Assembly (NCBI RefSeq): GCF_026210795.1
Contig: NC_089434.1
Location: forward strand, 2,914,001 to 2,978,000
Direction: 5' to 3'
Origin: Rhizophagus irregularis
Lineage: Eukaryota
DNA length: 64,000 nt
The translations under genes and the position numbers were made by a program. The notes below the pieces were generated by a model. It was given only the letters and a program-made list of their open reading frames with translations, ran no database searches and was not told the origin of the DNA. Positions 33,671 to 59,940 of this stretch are shown here, piece after piece. The number at the start of each line of letters is the position of its first letter. Position 1 is the stretch's first letter.

Positions 33671-35027
33671 ATGTAACTTATTTTTTAAAGTACTTTGTTA
33701 AAATTTTAATTATCATGTGAGTGGTAAAATTTTTTTTTGTCATATTACATGAAATTTTTATAGATTTCCATGGAATTTTTGTAAAATCCATAAAAATTAC
33801 ATGAAAACTAGTCCAAAATTTTATATTTTTATTATTGCTACTTAATAAAATTATCCAACTTTAACCCATAATATTAATTAAAATTCTTATTAAATTCTAT
33901 AAAATAATCTGATAAAAATATTCAGTACATGTTGCTTTATCATTTTATTGGTTTAGTTTTTTCTTTTTACTATTCAATTTACAATTTATAAAAATTTGAA
34001 GTTATATAATATTAGTGTAGTTTATAGGTGACAGCCACCATAGTAATTTATATATATTTTTCTAAATAATAAAAGTTTTAAATAGGATAACTATTGCAAT
34101 TTTTAGTTATACTAATAAATATTTAAAATTTTATATAATTATAATTACTATTTTTATAAAAAAGAAATATATTTTAATAAATAATGTTGCTAATCTTAAC
34201 CAAAGGGATAATTTTTCTTCCTTAAGAATTAAAAAAAAATAAACTTTTTTTATGAAATATATAAAATAAATATAATTGGATATTAATCACATAAAAATTT
34301 AGCAATTTTTGGTTTTAAAAAAAATTTTTATTATGAAAAATACAATTTAATTATAAAAATTAAAATTATGTAATTTTCTCAAAAACCATCTGAACAACTA
34401 CCTTTTTTAATTTAATAAAACCTTTTTCTCATAAATTTATATATAATTTTATTTTTAAATTACTATACAAGTCAATATTTTAATTAAAAATTGAAATAAA
34501 AGGAGAGAAAAAGAAATTTTTTCTGGTTAAGTTTAGTAATTTTCTTTAATAAATACAATTAATTTATATAATTATTTTTTTTTTTATATAATAATTATAT
34601 TATATTTATTTTTAACAATACAAAATTTAATTGAATAATAATAAATTTTATTATATAATTAAAATAAAAAATTATAATACTAGTTAATATATATTTAAAA
34701 TATTAATAAATCTGTAGTAATATTTAGATATACAGTCAACTCCCTCTATAGTTACTCCCGTTATAGTCACATTCTACTATATAGTCACACCAGTTGAATA
34801 TTCAAAACACTTTATTATTAAAATCTATCCTATATAGTCACAATCTATCTATAGTCACTATTACACCTATCCTTAAAAATCTTATATTAAAAAGAACCGT
34901 TTATAATCACAGTTATATAAAGAATATATTAAATAACTTGGCATCTAATAATCGTACAAAGATATATCATAGCTTGTTAGAATCGTCTCACTGAGACGAA
35001 TCGAATGGTGGTAGTTTTATCCTTTCC

Positions 35028-36017
35028 TTTGCTAGTGTTTACGGCCAGACACCCCATTGCCTCTTATGAGACTAATACGGAATGCCAATGTGCCCTATCA
35101 TCTTCAATAGCAACCATTAGTACCCCGAGCACTTAATTCCTCAGGTAACAGCACCACTATAGAAGACATCCCCCATCGGGCCATTATAGGCTGATCTGAA
35201 GCTAGGTACACGCTGCCTACTCATCCTATACTCATTGTATGATACTGATACTTAATTTATTTAACAACCTTTAGAGAGCATCTACTTTCATGGAGGACTT
35301 TCGACAGGTAACATCAACCATCTAAGCACTTTTCATACCACCATTTTAGGTACTAAGTCTCACTCAAAGGGCCACTACAGCCCGCGATTACTTAGCACCG
35401 ATAGTACAGTTGTTTACCCCAAGTGGTATACTTTGTAGTGACCACTCGGACGGGAAGGTAGCAGGCTTCTGTCCAGGATCACCCCTTATGGTGGGTATCA
35501 ACCACCAGGGATCACCAACCAGGACCCAAGAAGTGGGGAATCGAACCCCATAACCATACTACCTGTTCTGTGCACGAACACCTTGGTTGGTCTAAGACCT
35601 AACAGAAGGTCAAACTACCACTAAGACATTGCACTCTCAGCTTTACCATCTGATGGACGACCATACTAGCCATTACTGACCCCAAGATGGTATCGGGTAG
35701 TGACCACCTGAACAGAAAGTCCCCCCCAAAGGTATAGTAGTGACCTCAAAGACAGGACTGCGCACATACCAATGGCCTCATAGGGAACGTTAGAACACAT
35801 ACGACCCTTAGTTGAAATGTGCGGCCTAACCGTACACACTAATTCACCATGATGCAGTCCAACTACACTAATCCCTGTACCTTCACGCTATTGGTTGTAG
35901 CGTCTGCAGTAAAATTCTTTTTATTTCCGTAGTCATGGGAATCGAACCTGCGACCTCACCATACTCAGGCTTAATGAGGGTCTCAGTGACTAACCACCGA
36001 GATAGGGTGACCAACCC
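35028..36017 (-). mobile_element. tRNA-headed ~1 kb SINE-like element, subfamily A, copy 1
   Basis: 5' gggttggtcaccc with A-box-like tatctcggtggttag and B box ggttcgattcc; bounded by target copies at 35015-35027 and 36021-36034. Confidence 0.85.
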
Positions 36018-36034
36018 TAGTTTTATCCTTTTCC

Positions 36035-37016
36035 TTTGCAAGTGTTTACGGCCAGACCACCCATTGCCTCTTATGAGACTAATCTCGGGTCTGTGTCCTA
36101 TCATCTTCAATAGGCAACCATTATACCGAGTACTTAATTCCTCAGGTAACAGCACCACTATAGAAGACATCCCCCATCGGGCCATTTTAGGCTGATCTGA
36201 AGCTGAGACACGCCGCCTACTCATCCTATACCCATTGCATGATACTGATACTCAATTTATTTAACGACCTTTAGAGAGCATCTACTTTCATGGAGGACTT
36301 TCGACAGGTAACATCAACCATCTAAGATCCCTTCCATACCACCATTTTAGGTACTAAGTCTCACTCAAAGGCCACTACAGCCCGCGATTACCTAGCACCG
36401 ATAGTACAGTTGTTTACCCCAAGTGGTATACTTTGTAGCGACCACTCGGACAGGAAGTAGCAGGCATCTGTCCAGGATCACCCCTTATGGTGGGTATCAA
36501 CCACCAGGGATCACCAACATGGAGGGGCCAAGGAGTAGGAAATCGAACTCCATAGCCATGCTACCTGTTCTGTGCACGAACACCTTGGTTGGTCTAAGAC
36601 CTAACAGAAGGTCTAACTACCACTAAGACATTGCACCCTCAGCTTTACCATCTAGGACGACCATCTAGCCATTACTGACCCCAAGCAGTATCGTAGAGTG
36701 ACCACCTGGACAGGAAGTCCCCCTCAAGGTATAGTAGTGACCTCAAGGACAGGATTGCGCACATGCCAATAGCCTCATAGGGAACGTTAGAAGAACACCA
36801 TGACCCTTAGTTGAAATGTGCGGCCTAACCGTACACACTAATTCACCATGATGCAGTCCAACTACACTAATCCCTGTACCTTCACGCTATTGGTTGTAGC
36901 GTCCGCAGTAAAATTCTTTTTATTTCCGTGGTCATGGGAATCGAACCTGCGACCTCACCATACTCAGGCTTAATGAGGGTCTCAGTGACTAACCACCGAG
37001 ATAGGGTGACCAACCC
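36035..37016 (-). mobile_element. SINE-like subfamily A, copy 2
   Basis: Full-length repeat of copy 1 between target copies. Confidence 0.85.
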
Positions 37017-37033
37017 TAGTTTTATCCTTTTCC

Positions 37034-37460
37034 TTTTGCAAACAGTCTTATAACATTATTTTTATTTATATTTTAACATCGAAAATTCAAACGAACAATA
37101 TTACAAAAATAAGAAAATAAACTAATAAAAATAAAAAGAGTAGCTTCACGACTCATACAAGCAAAGAAATCTAAACTAAAATAAAATTAAAGCAAAGAAA
37201 AACTAGACTATTACAGAATCGCATACCCCAACTTTACCCGAAGGCCAGTGTGAGTCAACTATCCAACATCCAAAAATCCAGTCCGTTACCAGAAAGAAAT
37301 CCTAAGAGGTTGAACTGTTAAGCAGCGCAGAAAATCCAAGTGCGAGATCCATGATCCACCCCGAATTATAGAAGAGGATATCCAAGAAATCCAGGAATCC
37401 TGAGAAACTGTCGCCAAAGAAGAGTTATTTGTATGTGGAGAAGAAACAATAGGAGAAGAA
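37034..37460 (-). mobile_element. 5'-truncated LINE family A, 3' fragment
   Basis: Encodes ...DSWISWISSSIIRGGSWISHLDFL..LTVQPLRISFW*; 3' UTR homologous to 55003-55267. Confidence 0.88.
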
Positions 37461-37476
37461 AGTTTTATCCTTTTCC

Positions 37477-37633
37477 TTTGCAAGTGTTTACGGCCAGACC
37501 ACCCATTGCCTCTTATGAGACTAATCTCGGGTCTGTGTCCTATCATCTTCAATGGGCAACCATTAAACCGAGTACTTAATTCCTCAGGTAACAGCACCAC
37601 TATAGAAGACATCCTCCATCGGGCCATTTAGGC
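37477..37633 (-). mobile_element. 5'-truncated SINE-like subfamily A, copy 3
   Basis: Only the 3'-most ~157 bp, between target copies. Confidence 0.85.
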
Positions 37634-37648: not shown

Positions 37649-40600
37649 TGTGCAAACAGTCTTATGACGTTATTTTTATTTATATTTTAACATCGAAAAT
37701 TCAAACGAACAATATTACAAAAATAAGAAAATAAACTAATAAAAATAAAAAGAGTAGCTTCACGATTCATACAAGTAAAGAAATCTAAACTAGAATAAAA
37801 TTAAAGCAAAGAAAAACTAGACTATTACAGAATCGCATACCCCAACTTTACCCGAAGGCCAGTGTGAGTCAACTATCCAACATCCAAAAATCCAGTCCGT
37901 TACCAGAAAGAAATCCTAAGAGGTTGAACTGTTAAGCGGCGCAGAAAATCCAAGTGCGAGATCCATGATCCACCCCGAATTATAGAAGAGGATATCCAAG
38001 AAATCCAGGAATCCTGAGAAACTGTCGCCAAAGAAAAGTCATTTGTATGTGAAGAAGAAACAATAGGAGAAGAATTTATAGATGGGCCACGTAATTTGGA
38101 AGCAGCCGAGACACTAGCAAGCTAGTCGAATTAATCTTTAACCGAAGTTTTATGTGTAAATTCTGGCTGACATAAAATGTTGTAAAATTTTGTAATTCAA
38201 TAGAGTAAATTCATCAATCGCTAAAGCGCTGTATATAAATTTTCGATACAGAATGATAAAATTTGTATTCATAAAGAAAGAGGAAAGGAATAGGAAAGCT
38301 TAAAATAAGCATGAAAGAAATGAAGTGTAAAAGAAGAATAATAAAAGGAAGGTAATTAATTAATAAGAAACTAGCGCAATTAGCGCATTAAAAAAACAGG
38401 ATGAACAAAATCAGCGGGTAATTCCCACGATGTTCGGAAATCAGAAGGAGCAGGGTAAGGATGTGAATCAAACCAAGGTGCACAAACATCCAATAACATT
38501 AAGATATCACAAGGTTTAACACGACCTAGTTTGAAAGAAAACCGGGTATCACTATTCCAAAGATGTGAAAATGTCGAAGATGAAGCCGATTTGGTGATAA
38601 TAGATTGGATGGCATCTCGAAGATACTTCTTCGATACCGAGGAAGTGTTGTGCTTGGAAATTAATAACCAGAGGAAATTGTGAGAAGGTACATAAATGGA
38701 AGCACTATTCGAGAGTATCCTTCAGACCATATCAATAATGGAACGACTAAAGCCAAGAGTTTTGAAATCTTGATAATCAATAGCAAGGCAGTTCAGACCA
38801 ACAAAAGGACCAGAGGTGGGTTTGTCAGTGATAAAATGACTTGCAACTACAGAAGAGGGATTCAAAACCACTTTTTGGATAGAACCCGTAAACTTAGAAG
38901 ACACGAACGCAACAGAAGATTGATGTGAATGTTCTTTCAAACAGAAGGAAACGTCAGGACGTGAGGATACAAGATTACGTATATTCTGGACAATTGAGTA
39001 ATCAGTAGTAGACATAGTCAAATTATAGGAGGTAGGAGGAATGACTATAGCAGGATCCTTAGTGGCCATCCACATAGAAGAGTCAAGAAGATCGGAGTGA
39101 ACAACATGTCGTGAAAATTTGCTCCAGTCTGATAGAAGGTCTTTATGGCGTACTTGACGAGCAAGTTGTTTCTTCGTAGGGTGGGAGATAGATTTGTGAG
39201 CAGAATATGAGATAAGAGTTCGAGCAGAAAGTGAACCACTGTCGTCCTCAAGAACATGATGAAAAGCATAGGATTTGCGGTAGAAAAGTCCTAGGCATCG
39301 GGAAGTTACATCTTTATAAAAACCATCAGCGTGTCTTTTAGACACACGGTTACAAGGTAAAGCAAAAGGAGGAGAAGGAGGAGGGGGAGGTGTATGAACA
39401 AGTTTTTTGTCATGAATATGACAAGCATGACGAAATTGAGACATAACATAGGCAGCAGGAGTCTTGCAAAACGGGCAACCAAAATAAAGGCCAAGGTAAA
39501 AGCAAGATTGACGATATCGAAATTGAATAAAGGTACGAGTACGTCTATTATTACGATGAGAAGATGACCAACGAGCAAGAGAGGTAACACATTGTGTTAA
39601 TAAAAGCTGGCGTAACCTATTAAAATATTTACGTCGAGCACGGGAGGGAATACGGTTCTGGCGGTAAAAGAAAAAGGTTAAAAATTTTGATAAAATAAAT
39701 TTCAAATTAGGAGAGGGACGATCAGATGTAAATTGAAATGGCTCAGTAGTTGAAAGAAGAGGAGAATTGGTATGAATTGAATAACAATTATCCGAATCAG
39801 GAGTGGGGTCCAAAAGGAAATAACAGTTGCCTCGTCGAATAGAATATAAACGGTTAGAGCCAATATTTCGAGCAGGATGTATCCGTCCATCCAGGATGGT
39901 ACATATAGTGAAAGTGTAAGATGAACACTGTACATTATCATGAAGAAGATGGGCTGAAGTAGAAGTTGCCGGTAAAGGTTCCGCAGGTGTACAATTCAAA
40001 GAAAGGACTGGAGAAGGGACGTTAATGTCATAATCAGCAGTATCTTCTGAAACTGAAATTTGGGGAGTAATAAGAGAGGAGTCTAGGAATGTATTTTGAA
40101 AGGGACTTATAGGTTCGGAAGGACGTGATAAAGGTGGAACCAATAAACGTATTGTAGAAGGAGATAAAACCAGACGCGTAAAAGACAATTTAGTCTTAAT
40201 TTTCTGTGCACGTTTAAAAGATGCAGGGGAAATCATAGAGGATACGCGTTTACAAAGAAATTTATAAGTACGCCGTGAAGGGCGTAAACAATTGGTGCGT
40301 CGTGTAGAAGGGGTACATAAATCTAAGATGAGATTAGGATCAGCCTCGTGTTTAGAAGCCCAAATAGCTAATGGAAGAGGAGGTAGATTATCAATCAATG
40401 GATCATCATGTGATGGATGATCGTCAACAGGGGGGATAGCGAAATCCTTTTCTGAATCCGCAGTAGATGAAAGAGAGTCTAAACGCAAGTGTAAAAGGCG
40501 TTTTTATTCAGAAAGAGAGTCGTCTAGAAGGCGGAGGGGGCCAAAAGCGAGGTAAGCACGTGACTTGGCGGAAGAGTTATCAGGAAAAGAGTTGTAACGA

Positions 40601-40813
40601 GCAAAAAGAGTTTCTTGTTTAAGGGCGCACTTAGCGCAAAGGTCCTCAACTTCGCGAAGTTTGAAAAGAACTTCATCCCAACTCAAGGTTGAGAAGTCGT
40701 GAAAAGAGGCCATAGGCCAGAATAAGAATAGAAAAGATAAAAATAAAAGAAAAAGTAATAAAAAACTTTGGAAAAATTTTTTTTTATTTTTATGTAAATA
40801 ATGTCGTGAGGGC
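37649..40813 (-). mobile_element. Chimeric insert 1: RT-less passenger (38112-40813) fused to a LINE-A 3' tail (37649-38111)
   Basis: Target copies at both outer ends and none at the internal junction gccgaga|cactagcaagc. Confidence 0.82.
38380..40713 (-). pseudogene. Passenger ORF, 777 codons, two premature stops; unknown basic protein with CxxC...HxCxxH
   Basis: One frame from ATG 40713 to TAA 38380, broken only at 40504-40506 and 38722-38724; both positions are sense codons in copy 2. Confidence 0.75.
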
Positions 40814-40829
40814 CGTTTTATCCTTTTCC

Positions 40830-41384
40830 TGTGCAAACAGTCTTATGACTTTATTTTTATTTATATTTAACATCGAAAATTCAAACGAACAATATTACAA
40901 AAATAAGAAAATAAACTAATAAAAATAAAAAGAGTAGCTTCACGACTCATACAAGTAAAGAAATCTAAACTAAAATAAAATTAAAGCAAAGAAAAACTAG
41001 ACTATTACAGAATCGCATACCCCAACTTTACCCGAAGGCCAGTGTGAGTCAACTATCCAACATCCAAAAATCCAGTCCGTTACCAGAAAGAAATCCTAAG
41101 AGGTTGAACTGTTAAGCGGCGCAGAAAATCCAAGTGCGAGATCCATGATCCACCCCGAATTATAGAAGAGGATATCCAAGAAATCCAGGAATCCTGAGAA
41201 ACTGTCGCCAAAGAAGAGTTATTTGTATGTGGAGAAGAAACAATAGGAGAAGAATTTATAGATGGGCCACGTAATTTGGAAGCAGCCGAGATACCCTGCG
41301 ACTTTTCCCAAGCATGGAAAAGAACATTCCGACATAGCCAAATTTCACCATATAATTTGACTTGGAAGTCATTAAGAAGAGGAG
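40830..41384 (-). mobile_element. 5'-truncated LINE family A, 3' fragment
   Basis: PPLLNDFQVKLYGEIWLCRNVLFHAWE...LRISFW* plus 3' UTR, between target copies. Confidence 0.88.
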
Positions 41385-41399: not shown

Positions 41400-42377
41400 T
41401 TTGCAAGTGTTTACGGCCAGACCACCCATTGCCTCTTATGAGACTAATCTCGGGTCTGTATCCTATCATCTTCAATGGGCAACCATTATACCGAGTACTT
41501 AATTCCTCAGGTAACAGCACCACTATAGAAGACATCCCCCATCGGGCCATTTTAGGCTGATCTGAAGCTGAGACACGCCGCCTACTCATCCTATACCCAT
41601 TGCATGATACTGATACTCAATTTATTTAACGACCTTTAGAGAGCATCTACTTTCATGGAGGACTTTCGACAGGTAACATCAACCATCTAGTACCCTTCCA
41701 TACCACCATTTTAGGTACTAAGTCTCATTCAAAGGCCACTACAGCCCGCGATTACCTAGCACCGATAGTACAGTTGTTTACCCCAAGTGGTATACTTTGT
41801 AGTGACCACTCAGACAGGAAGTAGCAGGCATCTGTCCAGGATCACCCCTTATGGTGGGTATCAACCACCAGGGATCACCAACCAGGACCCAAGGAGTAGG
41901 GAATCGAACCCCTTAGCCATGCTACCTGTTCTGTGCACGAACACCTTGGTTAGTCTAAGACCTAACAGAAGGTCTAACTACCACTAAGACATTGCACCCT
42001 CAGCTTTACCATCTAGGATGACCATCTAGCCATTACTGACCCCAAGCGGTATCGTAGAGTGACCACCTGGACAGGAAGTCCCCCCAAGGTATAGTAGTGA
42101 CCTCGAAGGACAGGACTGCGCACATGCCAATGGCCTCATAGGGAACGTTAGAAGGACACCATGACCCTTAGTTGAAATGTGCGGCCTAACCGTACACACT
42201 AATTCACCATGATGCAGTCCAACTACACTAATCCCTGTACCTTCACGCTATTGGTTGTAGCGTCCGCAGTAAAATTCTTTTTATTTCCGTGGTCATGGGA
42301 ATCGAACCTGCGACCTCACCATACTCAGGCTTAATGAGGGTCTCAGTGACTAACCACCAAGATAGGGTGACCAACCC
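41400..42377 (-). mobile_element. SINE-like subfamily A, copy 4
   Basis: Full-length copy between target copies. Confidence 0.85.
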
Positions 42378-42394
42378 TGGTTTTATCCTTTTCC

Positions 42395-45300
42395 TGTGCA
42401 AACAGTCTTATGACTTTATTTTTATTTATATTTAACATCGAAAATTCAAACGAACAATATTACGAAAATAAGAAAATAAACTAATAAAAATAAAAAGAGT
42501 AGCTTCACGACTCATACAAGTAAAGAAATCTAAACTAAAATAAAATTAAAGCAAAGAAAAACTAGACTATTACAGAATCGCATACCCCAACTTTACCCGA
42601 AGGCCAGTGTGAGTCAACTATCCAACATCCAAAAATCCAGTCCGTTACCAGAAAGAAATCCTAAGAGGTTGAACTGTTAAGCAGCGCAGAAAATCCAAGT
42701 GCGAGATCCAAGATCCACCCCGAATTATAGAAGAGGATATCCAAGAAATCCAGGAATTCTGAGAGACTGACGCCAAAGAAGAGTTGTGTTGAGGTGGAGA
42801 AGTAGTATTAGGAGAAGAATTTGTAGATGGGCCACGTAATTTGGAAGCAGCCGAGATACCCTGCGACTCTTCCCAAGCATGGAAAAGAACATCACTAGCA
42901 AGCTAGTCGAATTAATCTTTAACCGAAGTTTTATGTGTAAATTCTGGCTGACATAAAATGTTGTAAAAATTTGTAATTCAATAAAGTAAATTCATCAATC
43001 GCTAAAGCGCTGTATATAAATTTCTGATACAGAATGATAAAATTTGTATTCATAAAGAGAAGGGAAATAGGAAAGCTTAAAATAAGCATAAAAGAAGTGA
43101 AAAAGGGAAGATGATTAAAAGAAAGTAAAAGAAAGTAATTAATTAAAAGGGAACTAGCGCAATTAGCGCATTAAGAAAGTAGGATGAACAAAATCAGCGG
43201 GTAAAACCCACTGTGATCGAAAATCAGAAGGAGCAGGGTAAGGATGTGAATCAAACCAAGGTGCACAAACATCCAATAATGATAAGATATCACAAGGTTT
43301 AACACGACCTAGTTTGAAAGAAAACCGTGTATCACTGTTCCAAAATTGTGAAAATGTTGAAGAGGAGGCCGATTTGGTGATAACAGATTGGATGGCATCG
43401 CGAAGATACTTCTTTGATACCGAAGAAGTATTGTGCTTGGAAATTAATAACCAGAGGAAATTGTGAGAAGGTACATAAATGGAAGCACTATTCGAGAGAG
43501 TATCCTTCGGACCATATCAATAATGGAACGACTAAAGCCAAGAGTTTTGAAATCTTGATAATCAATAACAGGGCAGTTTGGACAAACAAAAGGACCAGAG
43601 GTGGGTTTGTTAGTAATAAAATGACTTGCAACTACAGAAGAGGGATTCAAAATCACTTTTTGGATAGAACCCGTAAACTTAGAAGAAACGAACGCAACTG
43701 AAGATTGATGTGAACGTTCTTTCAAACAGAAGGAAACATCAGGACGCGAGGATACAAGATTACGTATATTCTGAACAATTGAGTAATCAGTAGTAGACAT
43801 AGTCAAATTATAGGAGGTAGGAGGAATGACTATAGCAGGATCCTTAGTAGCCATCCACATAGAAGAGTCAAGAAGATCGGGGTGAACAACATGTCGTGAA
43901 AATTTACTCCGGTCTGATAAAAGGTCTTTATGGCGTACTTGACGGGCAAGTTGTTTCTTCGTAGGGTGGGAGATGGATTGGTGAGCAGAATATGAGATAA
44001 GAGTTCGTGCAGAAAGTGAACCATTGTCGTCCTCAAGAACATGGTGAAAAGCATAAGATTTGCGGTAGGAAATTCCTAGGCGTCGGGAAGTTACGTCTTT
44101 ATAAAAACCATCAGCATGTCTTTTAGACACACGGTTACAAGGTAAACTGAAAGGAGGGGAAGAAGGAGGGGGAGGAGTGTGAACAAGTTTTTTGTCATGA
44201 ATATGACAAGCATGACGAAACTGAGACATAACATAGGCAGCAGGAGTCTTGCAAAACGGACAACCAAAATAAAGGCCAAGGTAAAAGCAAGATTGATGAT
44301 ATCGAAATTGAATAAAAGTACGAGTACGTCTATTATTACGATGAGAAGATGACCAACGAGCAAGAGAGGTAACACGTTGTGTTAATAAAAGCTGGCGTAA
44401 TCTATTAAAATATTTACGTCGAGCATGAGAGGGAATACGGTTTTGTCGGTAAAAGAAAAAGGTTAAAAATTTTGATAAAATAAATTTTAAGTTAGGAGAA
44501 GGACGATCAGATGTAAATTGAAAGGGATCAGTAGTTGAAAGAAGAGGAGAATTGGTATGAATCGAATAACAATTATTCGAATCAGGAGTGGGGTCCAAAA
44601 GGAAGTAACAGTTGCCTCGTCGAATAGAATATAAACGGTTAGAGCCAACATTTCGAGCAGGACGTATCCGTCCATCCAGGATGGTACGTATTGTGAAAGT
44701 GTAAGATGAACACTGTGTGTGATCATAAGGGAAGGCTGAAACAGAAGTCGCAGGAAAAATTTCCGCAGGAATACTATTTAAAGAAAGGACCGGAGAAGCT
44801 AGAGGAGGAACGATATTGTCATAATCAGCGGTATCTACTAAGGCTGAAATTTGGGGAGTAATAAGAGAGGAATCCAGAAAATTATTTTGAAAAGAATTCT
44901 TAGGCTCGGAAGGACGTGGTAAAGGTGGAACCAATAAACGTATTGTAGAAGGGGATAAAACCAAACGCGCAAAAGACAATTTAGTTTTAATTTTCTGTGC
45001 GCGCTTAAAGGATGCAGGGGAAATCATAGAGGATACGCGTTTACAAAGAAATTTAGGAGTACGCCGTGAAGGGCGTAAACGATTGGTGCATCGTGTAGAA
45101 GGGGTACATAAATCTAAGATGATATTAGGATCAGCCTCGTGTTTAGAAGCCCAAATAGCTAATGGAAGAGGAGGTAGATCATCATTCATTGGATCATCAT
45201 GTGATGGATGATCGTCAACAGGGGGGATAGCGAAATCCTTTTTTGAATCCGCAGTAGACGAAAGAGAGTCCAAGCGCAAGTGTAAAAGGCGTTTTTGTTC

Positions 45301-45609: not shown

Positions 45610-45642
45610 TTAGTTTTATCCTTTTTGGTTTTATCCTTTTCC

Positions 45643-46620
45643 TTTGCAAGTGTTTACGGCCAGACCACCCATTGCCTCTTATGAGACTAATCTCGGGTCT
45701 GTGTCCTATCATCTTCAATGGGCAACCATTATACCGAGTACTTAATTCCTCAGGTAACAGCACCACTATAGAAGACATCCCCCATCGGGCCATTTTAGGC
45801 TGATCTGAAGCTAGGTACACGCCGCCTACTCATCCTATACCCATTGCATGATACTGATACTCAATTTATTTAACGACCTTTAGAGAGCATCTACTTTCAT
45901 GGAGGACTTTCGACAGGTAACATCAACCATCTAGTACCCTTCCATACCACCATTTTAGGTACTAAGTCTCACTCAAAGGCCACTACAGCCTGCGATTACC
46001 TAGCACCGATAGTACAGTTGTTTACCCCAAGTGGTATACTTTATAGTGACCACTCAGACAGGAAGTAGCAGGCATCTGTCCAGGATCACCCCTTATGGTG
46101 GGTATCAACCACCAGGGATCACCAACCAGGACCCAAGGAGTAGGGAATCGAACCCCATAGCCATGCTACCTGTTCTGTGCACGAACACCTTGGTTGGTCT
46201 AAGACCTAACAGAAGGTCTAACTACCACTAAGACATTGCACTCTCAGCTTTACCATCTAGGACGACCATCTAGCCATTACTGACCCCAAGCGGTATCGTA
46301 GAGTGACCACCCGGACAGAAAGTCCCCCCAAGGTATAGTAGTGACCTCAAGGACAGGACTGCGCACATGCCAATGGCCTCATAGGAAACGTTAGAAGGAC
46401 ACCATGACCCTTAGTTGAAATGTGCGGCCTAACCGTACACACTAATTCACCATGATGCAGTCCAACTACACTAATCCCTGTACCTTCACGCTATTGGTTG
46501 TAGCGTCCGCAGTAAAATTCTTTTTATTTCCGTGGTCATGGGAATTGAACCTGTGACCTCACCATACTCAGGCTTAATGAGGGTCTCAGTGACTAACCAC
46601 CAAGATAGGGTGACCAACCC
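45643..46620 (-). mobile_element. SINE-like subfamily A, copy 5
   Basis: Full-length copy; host sequence resumes at 46641 after the last target copy. Confidence 0.85.
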
Positions 46621-46782
46621 TTGAGGTTTTATCCTTTTCCGATCACTGGCTGACGAGTTATTCAACAAAATGTTAAACATCAGCATTATAATATTTCTTG
46701 ATTTACGTTTACTGCGCCATTTAACATTTTGCTAGATTTCTCGGTACCTAGTGATTGTAAAAAGACGATTTATAGCTCGTTG

Positions 46783-49529: not shown

Positions 49530-52500
49530 ACACCAACTTGTATCGGGTGTCTCACAGGGATTTCACCCCCCTGATAGTGCGATACCTAATTTTAATAGTC
49601 CTTATAATCCCCCTTCTCCTTCTTTTTCTTCCCCTCTTATTAACTTTGGACAAATCAATGTTAATGGATTATGTTCCCCTGTACGACAACTGCATTTGTT
49701 AAATTATTTCCTTCATTCTTCTTTTGGCGTTTTATCTTTAAATGATACTCGTCTTACTTCTTCTAGTGCTAAATTTATTTATCAAAATGAACATTTCCAA
49801 TATAATTTTAAATCTTATTGGGCTCCTTCCCCCTCTAATTCGCGACCACATGATGGTGTTGGTCTTTTACTTCGCCATCCTTTACACAAACATGTTCAGA
49901 AGATTGATCCCTGGAAAGGTCGTCTTTTAAAATTAGATCTTTTTTTTCATCAGACAAAAATTTCTATTATCTCTGTTTATATTCCTCCTTATCATTCTAT
50001 TCATTATAAAGAACGTGATGTTATTCTTGTTCAACTTAATTTATGGCTTGATCAAGCCCGTTCCAATAACTATCACGTAGTTATCCTTGGTGATTTTAAT
50101 GCAGATAAAATTTCACATTCACATCTTTCTCAACATCATTTGAAAATTTTACGATCACTCTCTTCTCGATATTTTACGGATCACCAATCCCATATTTCCT
50201 CAATTTCAGGTCCTAGTCCTACCTTTTATCATCAAAATGGTTCTTCAAGACTTGATTATATCTGGTCATCCCCTGGATTTCCTGCTCCCGGTCTTTTCTC
50301 TCAAGTTGCAACTTGTCCTAAGCTGAATGATAATCAATTTACTGATCATTGTGTACTTATAACGGCCTTTGATTTTAGCTCATGTTTCGCTATTTTATCC
50401 AAAGCTCGATTAAAGCAGAAAAGCGAACAACGCACCATCTTTCTTTACAAAAATTTGAAAGATGACACTTGGGACAAATTTTCCAATGAAGTAAACTCAC
50501 GTCTTGAGTTATACTTGATCACACACCACCCTTCAGTATCTTCACTTTCAGCTCTTTCATTGGACAAACTTTGGCACGTTCTTAAACGTTCTATTCTTGG
50601 TGGTGGCATTGATTCTCTACCATTCCAACATGTATCCAATACTCATCACCATAAATATCCTCCTGAACTTACCATGCTTATTGCTGTCAACAAATTCTTG
50701 GATAGATTATTGTTTAAATTGACCACATCTAGGCCTAGTCGTCCTGCTCAAATTTCACAAATGATTAATTCTTTACCAATCCAATTAATCCTCCTTAAGT
50801 CTCTTTTAACAGATTATACTATACCTTCTTATAGTACAACACCGCTTTCTACTTTTGTCAAATTTTTACGTTCACAAAAAGCTTTGGTCTCAGCTTATCT
50901 TTCCACACAATTTCATCAGCATCGTGTAGATTCCATTGAATATTATACTGCTCTTAGAGATGAACATTTCTCTACATCCTCGGGCTCTTTTATTTCTTCA
51001 GCCCTATCAGTGGAACATCGTTCTATCGTCCTTGATAGAGTTTTGGTTGTTATTGACTCCAAACCCACATTATTTACTGATCCTTCAGATATTAAACAAG
51101 CTGCTATTAAACACTTCCAATCAGTTGTCACTCCTCCTTTGGTCCAGTATTCTTCTACGGATTCATTTCCTTCACGATGGCAACGAGCTTATACTCCTCT
51201 TCCAGATATTGATTCGTCCTTATATAACTCGGTTATGTCTCCTATTCTGGCCGATGAATGGAAAAACACTCTCAATTCTATGCCTAATAATAAAGCCTCT
51301 GGTCCTTCCAAGATCTCTTATGAGATGCTCAAACATTTAACTGGAGAAACTTTCAATTTGTCCCTTGTATTAGCCAATGCTTGTCTCATTCATGGAGATA
51401 TTCCTGCCGATTGGCGTGAAGCGCTTGTTTATCCCATTCCAAAGCCTCATGAATTTGACGCCCAATTGAAGAATACGTGACCTATCACTCTATTGGAAAC
51501 AGTACGAAAATGTGTGGTTAAGGTCGTTACAACTCGACTATCAAAAATCCTAGCCGACAATCAAGTGCTCCAAGGTGGTAATTTTGCCGGATTACCAGGC
51601 GGCTCCACCGACATTCCTATTAAGATGCTTGATGCTATTATTCATCAACGACGCTTTGATAAAAGCGATGACCAAGAACTATGGGTTGTTTCTCAGGACA
51701 TTTCTAAGGCCTTTGACTCAATTGATTTGAACATGCTTAGACTGGCTTTAATCCGTCTGCATATTCCGTCTTTATTGATCAAATTTATCATTAACCTTTT
51801 TACAAGGCGTAATAATAAAATTATTACACATCATGGTGATACTTCTGGATATAGAGTTAGAATTGGTATTGACCAAGGTGAAATCATCTCTCCACTGTTA
51901 TGGGTTATATACTTGGATCCGTTACTTACCACACTTAATCGAGAAGCTTGTGATCCCTTTATTTTGAAATCTTCTGCATTATTGGATTATTCTCCAATTG
52001 AATATGAACAACATAATTTTCCCGTTTCACATATTACATTCATGGATGACTCTACTTTGATTGCTTCATCTAAACAAGGAATTGAAGATCGCCTTTATAT
52101 CACTGCTGAATTTTACACTTTAAATAATACTCAAGCAAATTCAGCAAAATATATCCTTCTTTCTTCTGAACAATTTTCTCAAATTATTGTATTTGATCTA
52201 TTCCCATCTTCTTTAAATACGATTCATACCCTTACTTTAAAGGCGGTAGCCTTATCTACATCTTTTCGGTTTTTAGGTGTTTGGTTTAACCTTTTGGCTT
52301 CTTCTCGTTTCGTTCATAACCAAACTGTTTCCATGGTCAAAGACATGGCCGCTCTACTCAGTCCTAAAAAACTTTTAGCACAACATATAGCTTATCTTTA
52401 TAACGTTGTCCTACTTCCGAGGCTAGAATTTCGCCTACAAACCACATTATTTGCAGAATCCACCATTAATCGCATGGTTTCTCCAATGCTTTCTCTTATT

Positions 52501-55002
52501 CGTCAGAAGGCTGGTTTGGCCTCAGTCACTCCTCTTTCCACACTCTTCACACTGTTGCCTTTCTCTATTCAACAAGCATTTGGTCGATTTCTATCATCTC
52601 ATGTGGCTTCATGGCAGAAAATTTTTTCTCACCCTTCATATAAGCTCTTTGCTAATTATATGATTACTTATCTCCAAGGTTTTTTGGACTGTGATGTCTG
52701 CCCTTCTACTATTGACCTGGAACCATGGTCCCACACCTTTTCTTTGCGAACACATTCTTTATTTAATTCTTTATTGTTCTCTTCTCGTTTAAATATCACG
52801 TGGTCTTTACTGTTCCGACCTCCGAGGAAAGATTTACGTCCGGCGATTCCACTCCAGTCTATTTTACCAAATGATTTATTTACTTCCATGAAAAATGTTC
52901 GGAAAAATTTCTGCACTCATTTTCTTGCTCAATTGATTACACCGTGTGGCTCTCGACTTCTCTCATGGAAAGATTTACGTTTTCTTAAACGAGTATCGAA
53001 CAAAGGATCTGTGCCTGCTTGGTTTAATTATTTGTTCAATCTTATTGTTATTCCTAATTCACTTTCTTTTTTTATTTTACAACAATTTAGAATTCCTAGT
53101 TCTCATACCGTAGCTTCTATTTCTTTTATAGATATTAGTCGAAATTATTGGTTTAACCCTCAATGGGCTATTTCTTTTAATCGCGATACTAACTCTTTCC
53201 TCGTTGGCCGTGTGATTACTACCTATCCTGCTCCACGTAATGAAGCTCTTATTTCACATTGGATTGCGTCATCGGTTGATGATTTACTTTCTGAATTTAC
53301 TGCATGCCAAGGTTGTGCCTCTGCTATTCCGCGATCCTCTACCTCTAAGACTTTGATTAAACGATGTCCCTCTGAAGGATGTTTCTCTTATGTTCCGTTA
53401 TCAAGTTTGATCCGTTATCCTACGAAACCTCGTACTTATATACATGCGGATACTCATTCGGTTTCACTTTCTGCCTCGTTAGGCTATGCCAAATCTCTTT
53501 TACTATTTCATCTTTTTGCTCCGGTTCGCTTACTTCCTACGAATGAACTAGTGCTTAGGATTTCTGATATCCAACTTCCTTCTTCGGTGTTTACCCTTTA
53601 TATTGATGGTTCCTTCCTTTCTCCTCCTAGTCATCCGGCATCCTCGATGGCTTATGCATGGACTGCTATAGATCCTGATGGATTTATTTTGGAATCCCAT
53701 TATAATATCATCTCTTCCATTTTTCCTTCTGCTTTACGTTCAGAAGTTTTTGCTTTATTGCACGGATTGGACTCCCTTTCTCGGAATTCAAAGATTACTG
53801 TCGCCACTGATTGTGCTCAATTACTTTCTTTATGGTCTTTGTATGTGGATGCTCCTTTTATTCCCAGAATGCTTAAAGAATCCAATTACCTTTTGTGGTC
53901 CACCATACGCACTATTATGTTGCAAAAGAATCTGGATGTTACCTTGATCAAGGTTCCTGCTCATGCTGACGACCCTTTGAATAATCATGTGGATGCATTA
54001 GCTAAAGCCGCTCATACTGACTCACATCTTTCTTCTTGTCCACCATCGGAATTGATGGCTCCTTGCATTTTACAATTTAATTCCTTACCTGTGGATATGA
54101 ATATCCGGAAATTTATTAGAGATATTTTTGACGCCAAAAGTCTTTTAACTCTTGCTGTATTACCAAGATTTAATTCCTATTCTTCAACTTCTGATATTGA
54201 TTGGGCTTGCACCAAATTTTGTCTCAATAACATTAAGCATTTTGTCTCTCATCAGAATGGCCGTTCCGAGTTTTGTGGTTTCCGTATCAAGCTACTTTTA
54301 GATATGCTTCCAACGCTTACAACTCTTCAGAGACGAAAGCCTCATCTTTATAATCCAAGTTGGCTTTGTCCTCAATGTAATTCCTTTCCTGAGACTTTAG
54401 ACCACTTGTGGACTTGTCCTTATATTTTACCGGAATTTAGCCCTTTACAAACTTTTAAAACATTACTATTGGCTCTTCAGACTACTTATCTTGATAATTT
54501 CCTTTCCGCGTCATCTTTAATCCCTTTACCAGACTCTTTTGCTGCTGAATTTATGGCTCTTAATTGTTGGGATTGTGACCCTCCTTCAATTTCCTGCCTG
54601 CGACTCACAAGAGGACTTATACCGATATCTTTGACAGAATTTCTTGGAATTTATTTTTCTTCACCTACCATATGGTCTATCTTAGATACACCTTTGCACG
54701 ACTTTCATTTTGACCTTTATGTTCAAATCTGGTTGTGCCGATCCATTTTCTTTCATCATTGGGAATTAGCTCAAGGCATTACAAAAAAAATGAAATCGTC
54801 AGCTCTTGGGCCTTCTTCTATTCTTCGACCTTCCTCTAACATTCCTCTTGACTCTTCGACACCTTCCTTGGTGACAGCTTCCTTGGATTCCTGGGATTCT
54901 TGGGTTTCCTCTTCTATAATCTATGGGGGATCTTGGATTTCGCATTTGGATTTTTGGCGCCGCTTAACAGTTCAGCCTCTACTTAGGATTTCTTTTTGGT
55001 AA
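49522..55002 (+). pseudogene. LINE ORF2 (AP endonuclease, reverse transcriptase, RNase H, CCHC finger), one premature TGA
   Basis: INVNGL, HDGVG, ILGDFN, RLDYIW, TDH; QDISKAFD, GIDQGEIISPLLW, FMDD; LYIDGS..SEVFA..TDC..KVPAH..NNHVD; CPQC..HLWTC. Stop at 51478-51480 (KNT*PI). Confidence 0.93.
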
Positions 55003-55282
55003 CGGATTGGATCTTAGGACATGCTGGATAGTTGACTCACACTGGCCTTCGGGTAAAGATGGGGTATGCGTTTCTGTAATAGTTTAGTTTTTCTTTACTT
55101 AATTTTATTTTGTTTAGATTTCTTTACTTGTATGAATCGTGAAGCTTGTTCTTTTTATTTTTTATGTTTATTTTCTATATTTGATATTTGTAATATTGTT
55201 CGATTTGTTTATTGTACTTTTCGTTTAAATTTAATAATAAAAGATAAAGTCATAAGACTGTTTGCTCATAATCACCAAATAT

Positions 55283-56082
55283 CAACTAAGGGTCATGATG
55301 TCCTTCTAACGTTCCCTATGAGGCCATTGGCATGTGCGCAGTCCTGTCTTTGAGGTCACTACTATACCTTAGGGGGGACTTCCTGTCCGGGTGGTCACTC
55401 TACGATACCACTTGGGGTCAGTAATGGCTAGATGGTCGTCCTAGATGGTAAAGCTGAGGGTGCAATGTCTTAGTGGTAGTTTGACCTTCTGTTAGGTCGT
55501 AGACCAACCAAGGTGTTCGTGCGCAGACAGATAGCTTGGTGATTGGGTTCGATTCCCATTCTCTGATGGGCCCTGGTTGGTGATTCCTGGTGGTTGATAC
55601 CCACCGAAGGGATGATCCTGGGTAACACCTACAAGCTTACTGTTCAGGTGGTCACTACAAAGTATACCACTTGGGGATTACAACTGTACTATCGGTGGTG
55701 GGTAATCGCGGGCTGTAGTGGCCTTTGAGTGAGACCTAGTACCTAATATGGTGGTATGGAAGGGGTCTAGATGTTTGAAAGTTATCTGATGAAAGTCCTC
55801 CGTGACAGTAGTAGTGGTGAGGGGTTATAATAGTAGCCATTACAGTATCATGCAACGGATTAAAGGACGAGTAGGGTGGTGTTCAGCAGATTCGAAGGCC
55901 TTCGGATCCCTGGGATAAGTCCTTGCGTTTCAGTTGTGGTGTTGAATTGTCCCTGTTAAAAAGGTGGCGGGGATGGTTACATCATACATAGGTGAGGATG
56001 ATGCAATGAACGACCTACCTCCATAGCCTTCAATAGAGGGTGCGGAAAGTAGTGGCCACTAAACTTACAAAACACTTGTAAA
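55283..56082 (+). mobile_element. 5'-truncated SINE-like subfamily B, copy 1
   Basis: Core homologous to subfamily A with a different 3' region; bounded by target B at 55268-55282 and 56083-56097. Confidence 0.85.
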
Positions 56083-56097: not shown

Positions 56098-58564
56098 CAC
56101 GTGGTCGTTATTGTTCTGACCTCCGATAAAAGATCTACGTCTGGTGATTCCACTCCGGTCTATTTTACCTAAAGAACTATTTACTTCCATGAAAAATGTT
56201 CGAACTAACTTTGGTACTCGTTTTCTTGTCCAACTGGTTACTCCGTGTGGCTCCAGACTTCTTTCATGGAAAGATTTACGCTTTCTTAAACGTGTTTTGA
56301 ACAAAGGATCTGTGTCTGCTTGGTTTAATTATTTATTTAATTTTGTTATTATTTCTAATTCTTCTTCCTTTTTTGTTTTACCGCAATTTAGAATACCTAA
56401 TTCCCATACTGTAGCTTCTATCTTTTCTATAGATATTAGTCAAAATTATATGTTTAATCCACAATGGGCTATTTCTTTTAATCGCAGTACTAACTCTTTT
56501 CTTGTTGGCCGTGTGATCATTACCTATCCTGCTCCGCGAAATGAAGCTCTTATTTCACATTGGATTGCGTCATCTGTCAATGACTTATTATCCGATTTTA
56601 CTGCATGCCAAGGTTGTGCCTCTGCTATTCCGCGATCCTCTACTTTCAAGACATTGCTTAAACGGTGTCCTTCTGAAAAGTGCTTTTCTTATGTGCCTTT
56701 ATCAACTCTTATCCGTTACCCTACGAAGCCTCGTACTTATATACATGCGAAAACTCGTTCGGTCTCACTTTCTGCCTCGTTAGGCTATGCCAAATCTCTA
56801 TTATTATTTTATCTTTTTGCTCCAGTTCGATCACTTCCTATGAACAATTATGTGTCTAGGATCTCTGATATCCAACTTCCTTCTTCAGTGTCTACATTAT
56901 ATATCAATGGCTCTTTCCTTCCTTTTCCCAGTCATTCGGTACCTTCGATGGCTTATGTTTGGACTGCTATCGATTCTGATGGATTCCTTCTTGAATCTCA
57001 TTATAACACCATTCCTTCTCTTTTCCCCTTTGCATTGCGTTCTGAAATTTTTGCTTTATTGCATGGATTGGACTCTCTCCCTCAGAATTCCAAAATTACT
57101 GTCGCCACTGATTGTGCTCATTTAATTTCCCTATGGTCTATGTATGTGGATGCTCCTTTCATTCCTAGAATGCTTAAAGAATCCAACCACCTTTTATGGT
57201 CTTCGGCATGAGCTATTATTTCACAAAAAAATCTGGAAGTTACTTTAATCAAGGTTCCTGCTCATGCTGACGATTCTTTGAATAATCACGTTGATGATTT
57301 AGCGAAAGCTGCTTATACGGACTCGCGTCTTTCCCTTCAGTTGCCTGTACTTTTGGCTCCTTGCATTTTACAATTTAATTCTTTACCTGTGGATATGAAT
57401 ATCCAGAAATTCATTGGAGAAATTTTTGACGCCAAGAATCTTTTGACTCTTGCTTTACTACCAAGATTCACTTTTAATTCCTCTATTTCAGACATCGATT
57501 GGGCTTGTACCAAATTTTGTTTTAATAATAAACAATTACAAATTTTCCATCGCAATGGCCGTTCTGAATTTTATGCTTTCCGTATCAAGATTTTATTGGA
57601 TATGCTTCCGATACTCACAACTCTTCAGAAACGAAAGCCTCATATCTATGATCTGAGTTGGCTCTGTCCTCAGTGCAACTCCTCTCCTGAGACTTTAGAC
57701 CACTTATGGACTTGTCCTTATATTCTACCTGAATTTGGCCCTTTTAATACTTTTAAAACACTTCTGCTGGACCTTCGTACTGTTTATCTTGACAAACTTC
57801 TTTCCGCGACTCCTATGAACCCTTTACCGGACTCTTTTGTTGCAGAATTTATGGCTATTGATTGTTGGGAATGTGACCCTCCTTCAAATTCCTGTCTGCG
57901 ACTTACATGTGGCCTTATACCGATGTCTCTTATAAGTTTTCTTGGAACTTATTTTTCGCCATTCAATATTTGGTCTATCCTTGATACACCTCTACACAAC
58001 TTCCACTTTGACCTTTATGTTCAAATCTGGTTATGCCGTTCCATTTTTTTTCATCATTGGGAATTAGCTCAAGACATTACTAATAAAATTAAATCGTCTG
58101 CTATTGGTCCTTCTCCTATTTCTCATCCTTCCTCTCATATTTCTCCTGATTTTTCGACACCTTCCCTGGCGACAGTTTTCTTGGATTCCTGGATTTCTTG
58201 GGTTTTCTCTTATGTAATCCGTGGGGGATCTTGGATTTCGCACTCGGATTTTTGGCGCCGCTTAACAGTTCAGCCTCTACTTAGGATTTCTTTTTGGTAA
58301 CGGATTGGATCTTAGGACATGCTGGATAGTTGACTCACACTGGCCTTCGGGTAAAGTTGGGATATGCGTTTCTGTAATAGTTTAGTTTTTCTTTACTTAA
58401 TTTTATTTTGTTTAGATTTCTTTACTTGTATGAATCGTGAAGCTAGTTCTTTTTATTTTTTATGTTTATTTTCTATATTTGGTATTTGTAATATTGTTCG
58501 ATTTGATTATTGTACTTTTCGTTTAAAAATTAAATAAAAAATAAAGTCATAAGACTGTTTGCTC
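56098..58564 (+). mobile_element. 5'-truncated LINE family B copy (RNase H, CCHC, 3' UTR)
   Basis: Homologous to 52797-55267; TGA at 57209-57211; RNase H catalytic D appears as N (LYINGS). Confidence 0.92.
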
Positions 58565-58583
58565 ATAATCACCAAATATATAT

Positions 58584-59593
58584 GGGTTGGTCACCCTATC
58601 TTAGTGGTTAGTCACTGAGACCCTCATTAAGCCTGAGTATGGTGAGGTCGCAGGTTCGATTCCTATGACCACGGAAATAAAAAGAATTTTACTGCGGACG
58701 CTACAACCAATAGCGTGAAGGTACAGGGATTAGTGTAGTTGGACTGCATTATGGTGAATTAGTGTGTACAGTTAGGCTGCACATTTCAACTAAGAATCAT
58801 GGTGTCCTTCTAACATTCCCTAAGAGGTCATTGGTATGTTCGGAGTCCTGTCTTTGAGGTCACTGCATAGTATACCTTAGAGGTGGTGTCCTGTCCTGGT
58901 GGTCACTCTACAATACCACTGGGGGTACAGTTCGCTGTGCTAGATGGTCCTATAGATGGTAACATCATGGGTGCAATGTCTTAATGGTAGTTGACCTTCT
59001 AATAGATCTTAGACCAACCGTGATGTTCCTGAACAGAACAGATAGCTTGGTGATTGGGTTCGATTCCCTTCTCTGATGGCCTTGGATTGGTGATTCCTGG
59101 TAGTTGATACCCACCAAAAGGGATGATCCTGGGTAACACCTACAAGTTTACTGTCCAGGTGGTCACTACAAAAAGTATACCACTTGGGGATTACAACTGT
59201 ACTATCGGTGGTAGGTAATCGCAGGCTGTAGTGGCCTTTGAGTGAGACCTGATACCTAATATGGTGGTATGGAAGGGGTCTAGATGTTTGAAGGTTATCT
59301 GACGAAAGTCCTCCGTGACAGTAGTAGTGGTGAGGGGTTTATAATAGTAGCCATTACAGTATAATGCAACGGATTAAAGGATGAGTAGGGTGGTGTTCAG
59401 CAGATTTGAAGGCCTTCGGGTCCCTGGGATATGTCCTTGCGTTTCAGTTGTGGTGTTGAATTGTCCCTGTTAAAGGCGGCGGGATGGTTACATCATGGCC
59501 TAGTGAAGATGATGCAATGAACGACCTACCTCCATAACCTTCAGTAGAGGGTGCGGAAAGTAGTGGCCACTAAACGTACAATACACTTGTAAA
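58584..59593 (+). mobile_element. Full-length SINE-like subfamily B, copy 2
   Basis: gggttggtcaccc start, A-box-like 58597-58611, B box 58653-58663; target copies at 58565-58579 and 59594-59608. Confidence 0.87.
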
Positions 59594-59940
59594 ATAATCA
59601 CCAAATATGGACTGTCCCAAATGTGTGACTATAAAGAGAGTTGACTGTACCGGTTATTTTTATATTAAAAAATCTGTCAAATTTACTAGTTAGTTTAGTT
59701 AGTTTAAAATTACATTAATATTTTATTTATTATAATAATATTAATGTATTATTTAATTTAAATTTACTAATATTATAAAAAAATAAAATATAAAGTATAT
59801 TGTAAGTTAAATTTATATATATTTTATTACAAAAAAATTTAATAAGTATTTCTATTGATTTTTTATTAAAAAAAAATAATTAGTACAACTAATTCTTTAA
59901 AAAAAATAGCTAATTGATAAGTTATAATAAGATCCAAATT

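Follow-up and report, generated by a model that had tools for sequence, protein, structure and literature searches.

Target-specific retrotransposons of the apurinic/apyrimidinic endonuclease (APE) type have been reported from the Tx1 and R1 clades (PMC4640811), the Tx1 clade being found in animals (PMC4494074). The closest described arrangement is that of crocodilians, in which Tx1-Mar long interspersed nuclear elements (LINEs), together with SINEU short interspersed nuclear elements (SINEs), lie in the DNA transposon Mariner-N4_AMi (Kojima 2015, PMC4494074). This host has two mutually dissimilar hot spots, one towards its left end (about 240), entered in the opposite direction, and one towards its right end (about 830), entered in the same direction. 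The LINE families differ in the hot spot that they favour, the SINEU follow them, and tandem SINEU-3 copies sandwich a 16-bp target site duplication (TSD). Similarly, Xenopus Tx1L is an APE-type LINE whose insertion site is a specific sequence in Tx1D, itself a non-autonomous DNA transposon (PMC4494074, PMC1950540), and R1Bm and SART1Bm are sequence-specific APE-type LINEs, R1Bm having a short beta-hairpin loop and an RNA whose downstream target sequence aids priming (PMC7265360, PMC1950540). Here we analysed a window of 64,000 nucleotides from the fungus Rhizophagus irregularis (NC_089434.1, positions 2,914,001 to 2,978,000, forward strand), in which a small DNA transposon carries 13 retroelement copies at two sites, A and B. 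With a probability of roughly three in four, these copies were inserted singly by target-primed reverse transcription, two sister LINE families (LINE-A and LINE-B) each preferring one site.

The host transposon and its two arrays

The host element is bounded by terminal inverted repeats (TIRs). Its left end, CAGTCAACTC, lies at 34733 and the reverse complement closes the right end at 59647, with 20 of the first 23 bases matching between the two ends. After the inserts and one copy per target were subtracted, 961 bp of host DNA remained. TATA[GA]TCAC motifs recur near both ends, three to four internal repeats of about 147 bp lie inside, and site A falls within a related, diverged unit of this repeat. 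With its TA duplication, short TIRs, lack of coding capacity and dispersed copies, the host resembles a miniature inverted-repeat transposable element (MITE) of the Tc1/mariner type, a superfamily that we presume from the TA and the CAGT ends. The host right end was followed by unrelated flanks in 6 contigs of X1 and 13 of X2, which is the mark of a dispersed element, and this multicopy host likely offers a harmless, renewable landing site.

Nine inserts occupied site A on the minus strand and four occupied site B on the plus strand, and a 15-bp target copy was present at every insert junction (Table 1). Site A (GTTTTATCCTTTTCC on the plus strand, at host position 282) was found in 11 copies between 35014 and 46640 flanking the nine inserts; eight were exact and three imperfect, and unit A8 has one of the imperfect copies as an extra at its 5' end. 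Site B (ATAATCACCAAATAT, some 50 bases inside the host right end) was found in five exact copies flanking the four inserts. All 16 junction copies fall on the identical base, and the two 15-mers share no sequence. The 39,085 bases of the window outside the element contained 0 exact copies of site A and one of site B, namely the unoccupied copy in the right end of a second host; this single empty copy shows that the site B 15-mer is host sequence, which insertion duplicates. Site A holds SINE-A as four full copies and one 3' piece, LINE-A as two 3' pieces, and two copies of a passenger with an open reading frame (ORF), and site B holds, in order, a full LINE-B, a truncated SINE-B, a truncated LINE-B and a full SINE-B. 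Poly(A) tails are absent from the inserted elements. The A/B line divides SINE tails, LINE tails and ORF2 families alike, with 0 cross-placements in 13 inserts. These results bear out three claims of an earlier first-pass annotation of this sequence: a TIR-bounded, TA-flanked element with about 0.96 kb of host DNA; 13 inserts at two exact sites with a fixed orientation per site and target copies between them; and a separate LINE family and SINE tail for each site, together with an ORF-bearing passenger at site A.

Table 1. Positions in the window of the host transposon, its target copies and its inserts
Feature	Position	Strand	Remarks
Host element, whole	34733..59647		Non-autonomous, TIR-bearing; TA on either side
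Host left part	34733..35013	+	TIR and sub-terminal TATA[GA]TCAC motifs; TA outside
Target A copy, host-left junction	35014..35027		One base short
A1	35028..36019	-	Full-length SINE-A, most diverged copy (6.5-6.9% from others)
A2	36035..37018	-	Full-length SINE-A
A3	37034..37461	-	LINE-A 3' piece, 428 bp
A4	37477..37633	-	SINE-A 3' piece, 157 bp
A5, passenger	37649..40814	-	2703-bp body and 463-bp LINE-A tail
A6	40830..41384	-	LINE-A 3' piece, 555 bp
A7	41400..42379	-	Full-length SINE-A
A8, passenger	42395..45612	-	2720-bp body and 498-bp tail of another LINE-A subfamily
Two adjoining target A copies	45613..45642		One with 2 mismatches, one exact
A9	45643..46625	-	Full-length SINE-A
Target A copy, host-middle junction	46626..46640		
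Further target A copies	Starts 36020, 37019, 37462, 40815, 41385, 42380; 37634		Exact; the copy at 37634 with 2 mismatches
Host middle part	46641..47251	+	Internal repeats of about 147 bp, 76-82% alike
Target B copy, host-middle junction	47252..47266		
Further target B copies	Starts 55268, 56083, 58565, 59594		
B1	47267..55267	+	Full-length LINE-B, 8001 bp
B2	55283..56082	+	5'-truncated SINE-B
B3	56098..58564	+	5'-truncated diverged LINE-B, 85% to B1
B4	58580..59593	+	Full-length SINE-B; transfer RNA (tRNA)-like head 58585-58672 with exact B box
Host right end	59609..59647	+	TIR; TA outside
Second host copy, right-end fragment	23171..23366	+	Single unoccupied site B at 23313-23327

In both arrays the most diverged units occupy the downstream end. 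Private differences amounted to 5.2% in A1 against 0.5-1.0%, and to 9.6% in B4 against 1.5% in B2, and the best database match was 85-88% for B3 and 96% for B1. This pattern hints that new copies go into the upstream target copy; however, the tail of the upstream A8 is likewise diverged (3.4%), counter to this hint.

An origin of the array by tandem duplication of DNA or unequal crossing over, or as an assembly artefact, appears highly improbable. The unit order is that of the assembly, 0 long reads or contigs were seen to span the array and no contig or read piece among those listed spans the whole stretch, which leaves some room for this explanation, as does the resemblance of A2-A3 to A7 plus the A8 tail over 1.4 kb (96.7%). 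However, the sole adjacent pair of the same type, A1/A2, shows 6.6% divergence, compared with 2.2% between A2 and A7; the A3 tail is closer to A6 (1.2%) than to A8 (4.3%); and truncation points and 5' extra bases vary from unit to unit; tandem duplication, which the first-pass annotation had named as a ground for refutation, thus failed to refute its reading. The same junction types also occur in raw reads and in records of other assemblies on 1.4- and 4-kb contigs (P0150, P0118), which argues against an artefact.

A TA-flanked MITE of 197 bp (22378-22574) has related CAGT ends, TATA[GA]TCAC motifs and an unoccupied site B with two mismatches, and an element with 38-nt inverted ends (82%) lies at 22722-23100, directly upstream of the truncated host copy. 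A second CAGTCAACTC at 21558 was rejected as a homologous left end, the similarity stopping after about 10 bases. The AT-rich host flanks (34561-34732 and 59648-59823) showed about 70% inverted similarity, the score of 70 (null mean 40) being reached in 0 of 500 base shuffles; this result is weak, as shuffling breaks A/T runs.

LINE families, SINEs and the passenger

B1 contains an ORF1 (47409-49529) with an RRM and a premature TGA at 48720, and an ORF2 (49522-55002) with an APE endonuclease, a reverse transcriptase (RT), an RNase H and a C-terminal Cys/His motif, with a premature TGA at 51478. The Pfam scores for LINE-B were 1e-12 for Exo_endo_phos (favoured above Exo_endo_phos_2), 5e-14 for RVT_1, 4e-8 for RRM_1 and 3e-7 for RNase_H. 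An RNA-binding domain in ORF1, APE and RT in ORF2, a common 3' end, variable 5' truncation and TSDs identify these elements as APE-type LINEs. An intact relative has Arg where B1 ORF1 has its stop, and a CGA-to-TGA change there would fit the high CG methylation of R. irregularis transposable elements (PMC8647823). In the window LINE-A is present only as 3' pieces (A3, A6 and the two passenger tails), with 0 full-length copies. The ORF2 C-terminus of A6 is 98% identical to P0058, a record that heads a 143-member cluster, is 59% identical to LINE-B and has the same ORF2 domains (APE, RT, RNase H). Intact ORF2 records exist for both families (e.g. P0193, P0274), and all named close homologues of ORF2 are from R. 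irregularis, among whose repeats 'LINE R1' has been listed with families unspecified (PMC8647823).

In an RT-region tree of 26 rows, families A (6 rows), B (5) and C (5) each formed one side of a supported branch, and all three were separate from the ten remaining, more distant LINEs (about 32% identity). The tree comprises database homologues of the query, from which P0030 and P0047 were excluded, P0030 for a missing anchor motif. LINE-A and LINE-B are sister families, and the RT tree check proposed by the first-pass annotation, with A and B on separate supported branches, agreed with its reading. To our knowledge, ORF2 of the Tx1 clade lacks RNase H. Given the fungal host and the RNase H, the Rhizophagus LINEs are not placed in Tx1. 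The third sister family, C, comprises P0063, P0066, P0070, P0076 and P0083; the variant SINE-A gene models P0156 and P0158 are listed on contigs equal in length to those of P0076 and P0070.

The endonucleases of A and B share 73% identity. Among the places where they differ are the loop that follows the YxP motif and the beta-hairpin loop (FHDNGS in A, YHQNGS in B), the latter a loop that has been tied to target selection (PMC1950540). The best PDB match of the endonuclease was the L1/R1Bm loop chimera 2v0s, a weak match (E 0.073) with a short beta-hairpin loop as in R1Bm. The endonuclease (49636-50400 and homologues) has NDT where human L1 has QET, so that the metal-binding Glu is replaced by Asp, and this Asp is common to A, B, C and the more distant LINEs of the set. 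Poly(A) RNA reads piled up on the LINE 3' tail at 58278-58529, with a depth near 900 per mate direction and little upstream; 338 reads bear an A-like tail variant, so this RNA may derive from another family or from the passenger.

SINE-A and SINE-B have their first ~700 bases in common, mostly at 75-98% identity per 60-column block (lowest 69%), beyond which identity drops to 39-66% and the 3' modules of about 300 bases differ. B2 is a mosaic, A-like up to about SINE position 400 and B4-like thereafter. The SINE head contains the exact B box GGTTCGATTCC; its alignment to the tRNA clan was weak (16.1 bits, E 0.61, under the cut-off of 47), and neither an Rfam scan of the array nor ARAGORN returned a match for it. 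The sense strand of the seven SINE copies contained no run of five T, which is weak evidence on its own. The SINEs are non-coding and TSD-flanked, with 5'-truncated copies that share a common 3' end. Blastn of SINE against LINE units gave no match, so the SINE 3' tails are not homologous to the tails of the partner LINEs; exceptions to the rule of SINE-LINE tail homology exist (PMC4494074). A small hairpin with an ATAA loop lies close to the end of LINE-A, LINE-B and SINE-A, and a similar four-base loop occurs in SINE-B, a comparison made without a shuffle control. The SINE-A/target/SINE junction (35883-36167 region, minus strand) yields a spurious 95-aa ORF (P0152 cluster), and at least 21 accessions carry this ORF as a hypothetical protein.

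The passenger ORF spans about 779 codons and is broken in both copies: A5 (ATG at 40713) has stops at codons 70 and 664, and A8 (ATG at 45504) has a frameshift near 43500. It is whole in records such as P0001. The ratio of nonsynonymous to synonymous substitution rates between the A5 and A8 ORFs was 0.28, compared with 1.02 and 1.34 in shifted frames and 0.25 for LINE ORF2, and the passenger ORF is under purifying selection. The A5 and A8 bodies stop at the identical base, right after a short hairpin, and the tails beyond belong to different LINE-A subfamilies. At the protein level two more joints are suggested: in P0364 a 69%-identical passenger runs into a LINE-C tail, the joint lying further upstream, and in P0027 (R. 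diaphanus) the tail is shorter. An origin as a Helitron, suggested by the terminal hairpin, was set aside, as no LINE sequence lies upstream and the target copies are found on the outer sides of the complete chimera.

All named close homologues of the passenger come from R. irregularis, apart from some in R. diaphanus. A Pfam scan found no RRM or other family in it, and 38 of 40 distant homologues had no Pfam family. The passenger scored best to itself and not to ORF1 of LINE-A or LINE-B, although a remote link is possible. A profile search returned 203 related clusters at E up to 0.001, most matching the central stretch, and LINE ORF pieces were seen in just 2 of 146 further proteins from this search. 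With an 83-row alignment, the model of the central stretch reached a predicted local distance difference test (pLDDT) value of 91.8, compared with 34.7 for the whole protein. This central domain is basic (39 K+R against 11 D+E) with conserved C154, C157, C172 and H175 (CCCH), and is thus predicted to bind zinc and nucleic acid. The model had no match in PDB by Foldseek, in VIA-align wide (best Z 3.6) or in a viral library, and all ESM Atlas matches for the passenger were under 0.9; absent matches of this kind show neither a new fold nor a difference from known folds.

The multi-component system of the first-pass annotation therefore stood in its host MITE, two sister LINEs, site-matched SINE tails, passenger and junctions that recur elsewhere, and fell short in that the window contains no whole LINE-A, no intact B1 and no intact passenger ORF.

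Junctions at other loci and the insertion mechanism

Junctions elsewhere were reached by two indirect routes: reads and contigs on 57900-59760 (4 of 24 listed runs; site B end only), and gene models that cross junctions. By the first route, 19 RNA reads (17 starts, X24) go from the LINE-B tail via target B into the host right end, and X2 and X3 each supplied a single contig with the same junction; tandem SINE-B was found in one X1 contig and an unoccupied site B in 25 contigs of X2. By the second route, a query of 50 residues, taken from the end of SINE-A and excluding the target, matched 12 of 14 candidates, four spliced before the end and eight reaching it. All eight continue with the target A peptide, seven from outside the window and one being the window's own. 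The order SINE-A, target, SINE head was found in 15/15 listed members of the 16-member P0152 cluster (one the window's own) and in P0155. In P0118, P0151 and P0154, the SINE-A end and target A are followed by LINE-A truncated at three different points, and in P0153 and P0335 the SINE-A end continues into host-left sequence. P0033 and P0178 read LINE-B, target B, SINE head, and P0181 reads LINE-B, SINE-B tail, LINE-B. The extraction of 3' junctions that had been proposed earlier thus gave on-target results (7/7 outside SINE-A models at target A, and RNA reads across target B) on a biased sample.

Accession order served as a stand-in for position (one accession series, at most 15 listed members per cluster, some isoforms omitted). 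Of the 21 LINE-B loci, four had one of the 19 SINE-A tandem models no more than 10 accession numbers away (null mean 0.51, P = 0.0014), compared with 0/22 loci of a distant LINE family taken as control. Loaded two-site hosts likely recur at other loci. The LINE-tail pattern matched 6 loci in metagenome contigs, 0 of them related, and 4 loci in viral contigs, as chance matches only, and a LINE-A protein search of prokaryote genome contigs gave no match. The system is real and multi-locus, and it most likely reflects sequence-specific retrotransposition.

In the proposed mechanism, each ORF2 endonuclease would nick its own 15-mer on the antisense strand, at the 5' edge (TTTTCC/GATC for A, GATTAT/AAAG for B), and the other strand would be cut 15 bases on. 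Each insertion would leave two target copies, letting the arrays grow. A read-through target copy in the RNA would likely pair with the nicked primer, because poly(A) tails are absent and RNA reads run through target B. The SINE 3' modules would act as address labels that recruit LINE-A or LINE-B protein. The passenger would be a separate protein-coding RNA with a fixed 3' end, joined to a LINE tail by a template jump of the RT, and the chimera would thereafter move as a unit.

The address could instead be set by the RNA, the read-through target copy of the transcript pairing with nicked DNA and either LINE protein serving either site, in which case the two endonucleases could have the same specificity. 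The missing poly(A) tails and the reads that pass target B into the host fit this explanation, as do the requirement of R1Bm for downstream target sequence in its RNA for accurate reverse transcription (PMC7265360) and the partly structural selectivity of APE endonucleases (PMC1950540). However, the nick has to precede pairing at two sites that share no sequence, the A/B split is free of cross-placement and the endonuclease loops differ, and we regard an RNA-set address as distinctly improbable.

Several points weigh against single insertion by two site-preferring LINE families. Both routes are biased to on-target junctions, and the flank sample is partial, not genome-wide. The gene models are 89 aa or longer, so that junctions with another element are likelier to be sampled than those with random AT-rich flanks. 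The absence of a loose end at either retroelement 3' end, a point in favour of this reading, holds for 24 of 324 loose-end rows. Four X2 contigs have other, mixed letters ahead of target B and the SINE head (58565). By accession order, 17 of the 21 LINE-B loci do not lie beside a sampled SINE-A model, and neither the LINE-A loci (2/16, P = 0.054) nor the passenger loci (0/7) were significantly near one; LINE-A and passenger 3' junctions were read within the window only. SINE and LINE 3' ends have in common just a short four-base-loop hairpin and a TTG(C/T) end. The putatively active endonuclease has Asp in place of the human L1 QET Glu. P0502 combines the A8 junction with an A5-type ORF end, and some differences between passenger junctions may be deletions from one fusion. 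Because P0502 shares the A8 joint, passenger chimeras also spread as units. The mixed letters at 58565 are possibly a further user of site B.

These biased or partial outside samples leave room for a looser preference for the host, or for copying mostly as cargo of a moving or duplicated loaded transposon, this locus then being an extreme pile-up and unrelated sequence flanking many copies at other loci. Crocodilian SINEU-1 and SINEU-2 flank their Mariner host in 23% and 13% of copies only (PMC4494074), and with both TIRs intact the 25-kb unit could in principle move. Such an explanation is nevertheless unlikely, given the single base on which the window junctions fall and the 0 off-target junctions among 7 outside matches and 14 outside cluster members; the outside loci, unlike cargo, vary in neighbour order and truncation point (P0118, P0151, P0154, P0181). 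Insertion by site-preferring LINEs is therefore retained as the preferred reading. Against the criterion by which a retrotransposon counts as target-specific when over 20% of its flanks are one repeat type (PMC4494074), all sampled junctions were on target, in biased samples; strict specificity across the genome is on these samples a candidate reading.

Elsewhere in the window, two overlapping long inverted-repeat elements (28273-33670; arms of 149 nt at 93%, and of 83-127 nt at 72-87%) contain tandem repeats of about 120 bp, and decayed pieces of an unrelated RT/RNase H/zf-RVT retroelement lie at 23981-28428 (minus strand). Ordinary fungal genes lie upstream (3302-19383), including an F-box/WD40-type gene at 13383-15257; others presumably correspond to condensin, mitochondrial carrier, CCT chaperonin and arginine methyltransferase exons, which they resemble.

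Comparison with described systems

A wider reading can be put forward tentatively, and we consider it possible but doubtful. An independently evolved, strictly specific APE-RT-RNase H lineage in Glomeromycota would have split into sister enzymes with different 15-bp addresses in one DNA transposon. Its riders would be SINEs that change address by 3' module swap, and a protein-coding RNA, repeatedly captured by template jump, whose zinc- and nucleic-acid-binding domain (an undescribed fold) would be selected as aiding or regulating mobility. If this is true, the 203 related clusters mark a wider class of such riders. A fungal RNase H lineage with crocodilian-like Mariner docking would either argue strongly for convergence or extend a known clade into fungi. 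As endonucleases so similar have unrelated 15-bp sites, domain and loop swaps can probe what sets APE target choice, and the A/B enzyme pair could give a site-specific gene-insertion system. In R. irregularis, where unclassified repeats make up 32% of the genome (PMC8647823), the system would explain the spurious 95-aa gene models and part of these repeats. It also flags a large passenger-related protein family as possibly retro-mobile.

The passenger invites comparison with other dependent elements. HAL1 and Magnaporthe MoTeR2 are non-autonomous, keep an ORF or a foreign interior and borrow LINE machinery. HAL1 keeps an ORF1-type protein, whereas the passenger has no RRM or other Pfam match. 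Magnaporthe MINE (WEIRD-MGL) elements are likewise fungal chimeras, in which a full-length 5' RNA is joined to 5'-truncated LINE tails of varying length, a structure explained by template switching; WEIRD, however, is 1.1 kb and non-coding, and site specificity is not described in the accessible portion of PMC2104539. The Rhizophagus passenger shares the fixed 3' end and LINE tails of different length, but its 5' part is coding: it is 2.7 kb long, occupies site A and encodes a protein of about 779 aa that is under purifying selection. The targets of R1Bm and SART1Bm are different, being insect ribosomal DNA and telomeric repeats, and SART1 is poly(A)-tailed (PMC7265360, PMC1950540). Xenopus Tx1L belongs to the animal Tx1 clade and uses a piggyBac-type host, and the accessible text describes no SINE or passenger partner (PMC4494074, PMC1950540).

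A literature search found no description of such a system in Rhizophagus or other fungi; Repbase, Dfam and paper supplements lay outside this search and may hold the families, and the word SINE has 0 occurrences in the main text of PMC8647823 and bioRxiv 10.1101/2022.10.19.511543. The novelty that the first-pass annotation implied for a two-slot docking platform did not survive, as the crocodilian layout is the same (PMC4494074). The crocodilian system differs in its animal Tx1 clade, its small nuclear RNA-headed SINEs and its old copies (85-91% to consensus); it has 'regions' with preferences of 13-90% rather than one exact base, and a passenger is not among the parts described in the accessible text (PMC4494074). 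The Rhizophagus system, in contrast, is fungal, with RNase H in ORF2, a tRNA-like SINE head, intact young ORF2 records and 13 units in one host. The docking concept is thus already known, and what is new here is the fungal RNase H-bearing lineage, the exact sites, the SINEs with one head and two tails, and the selected passenger ORF.

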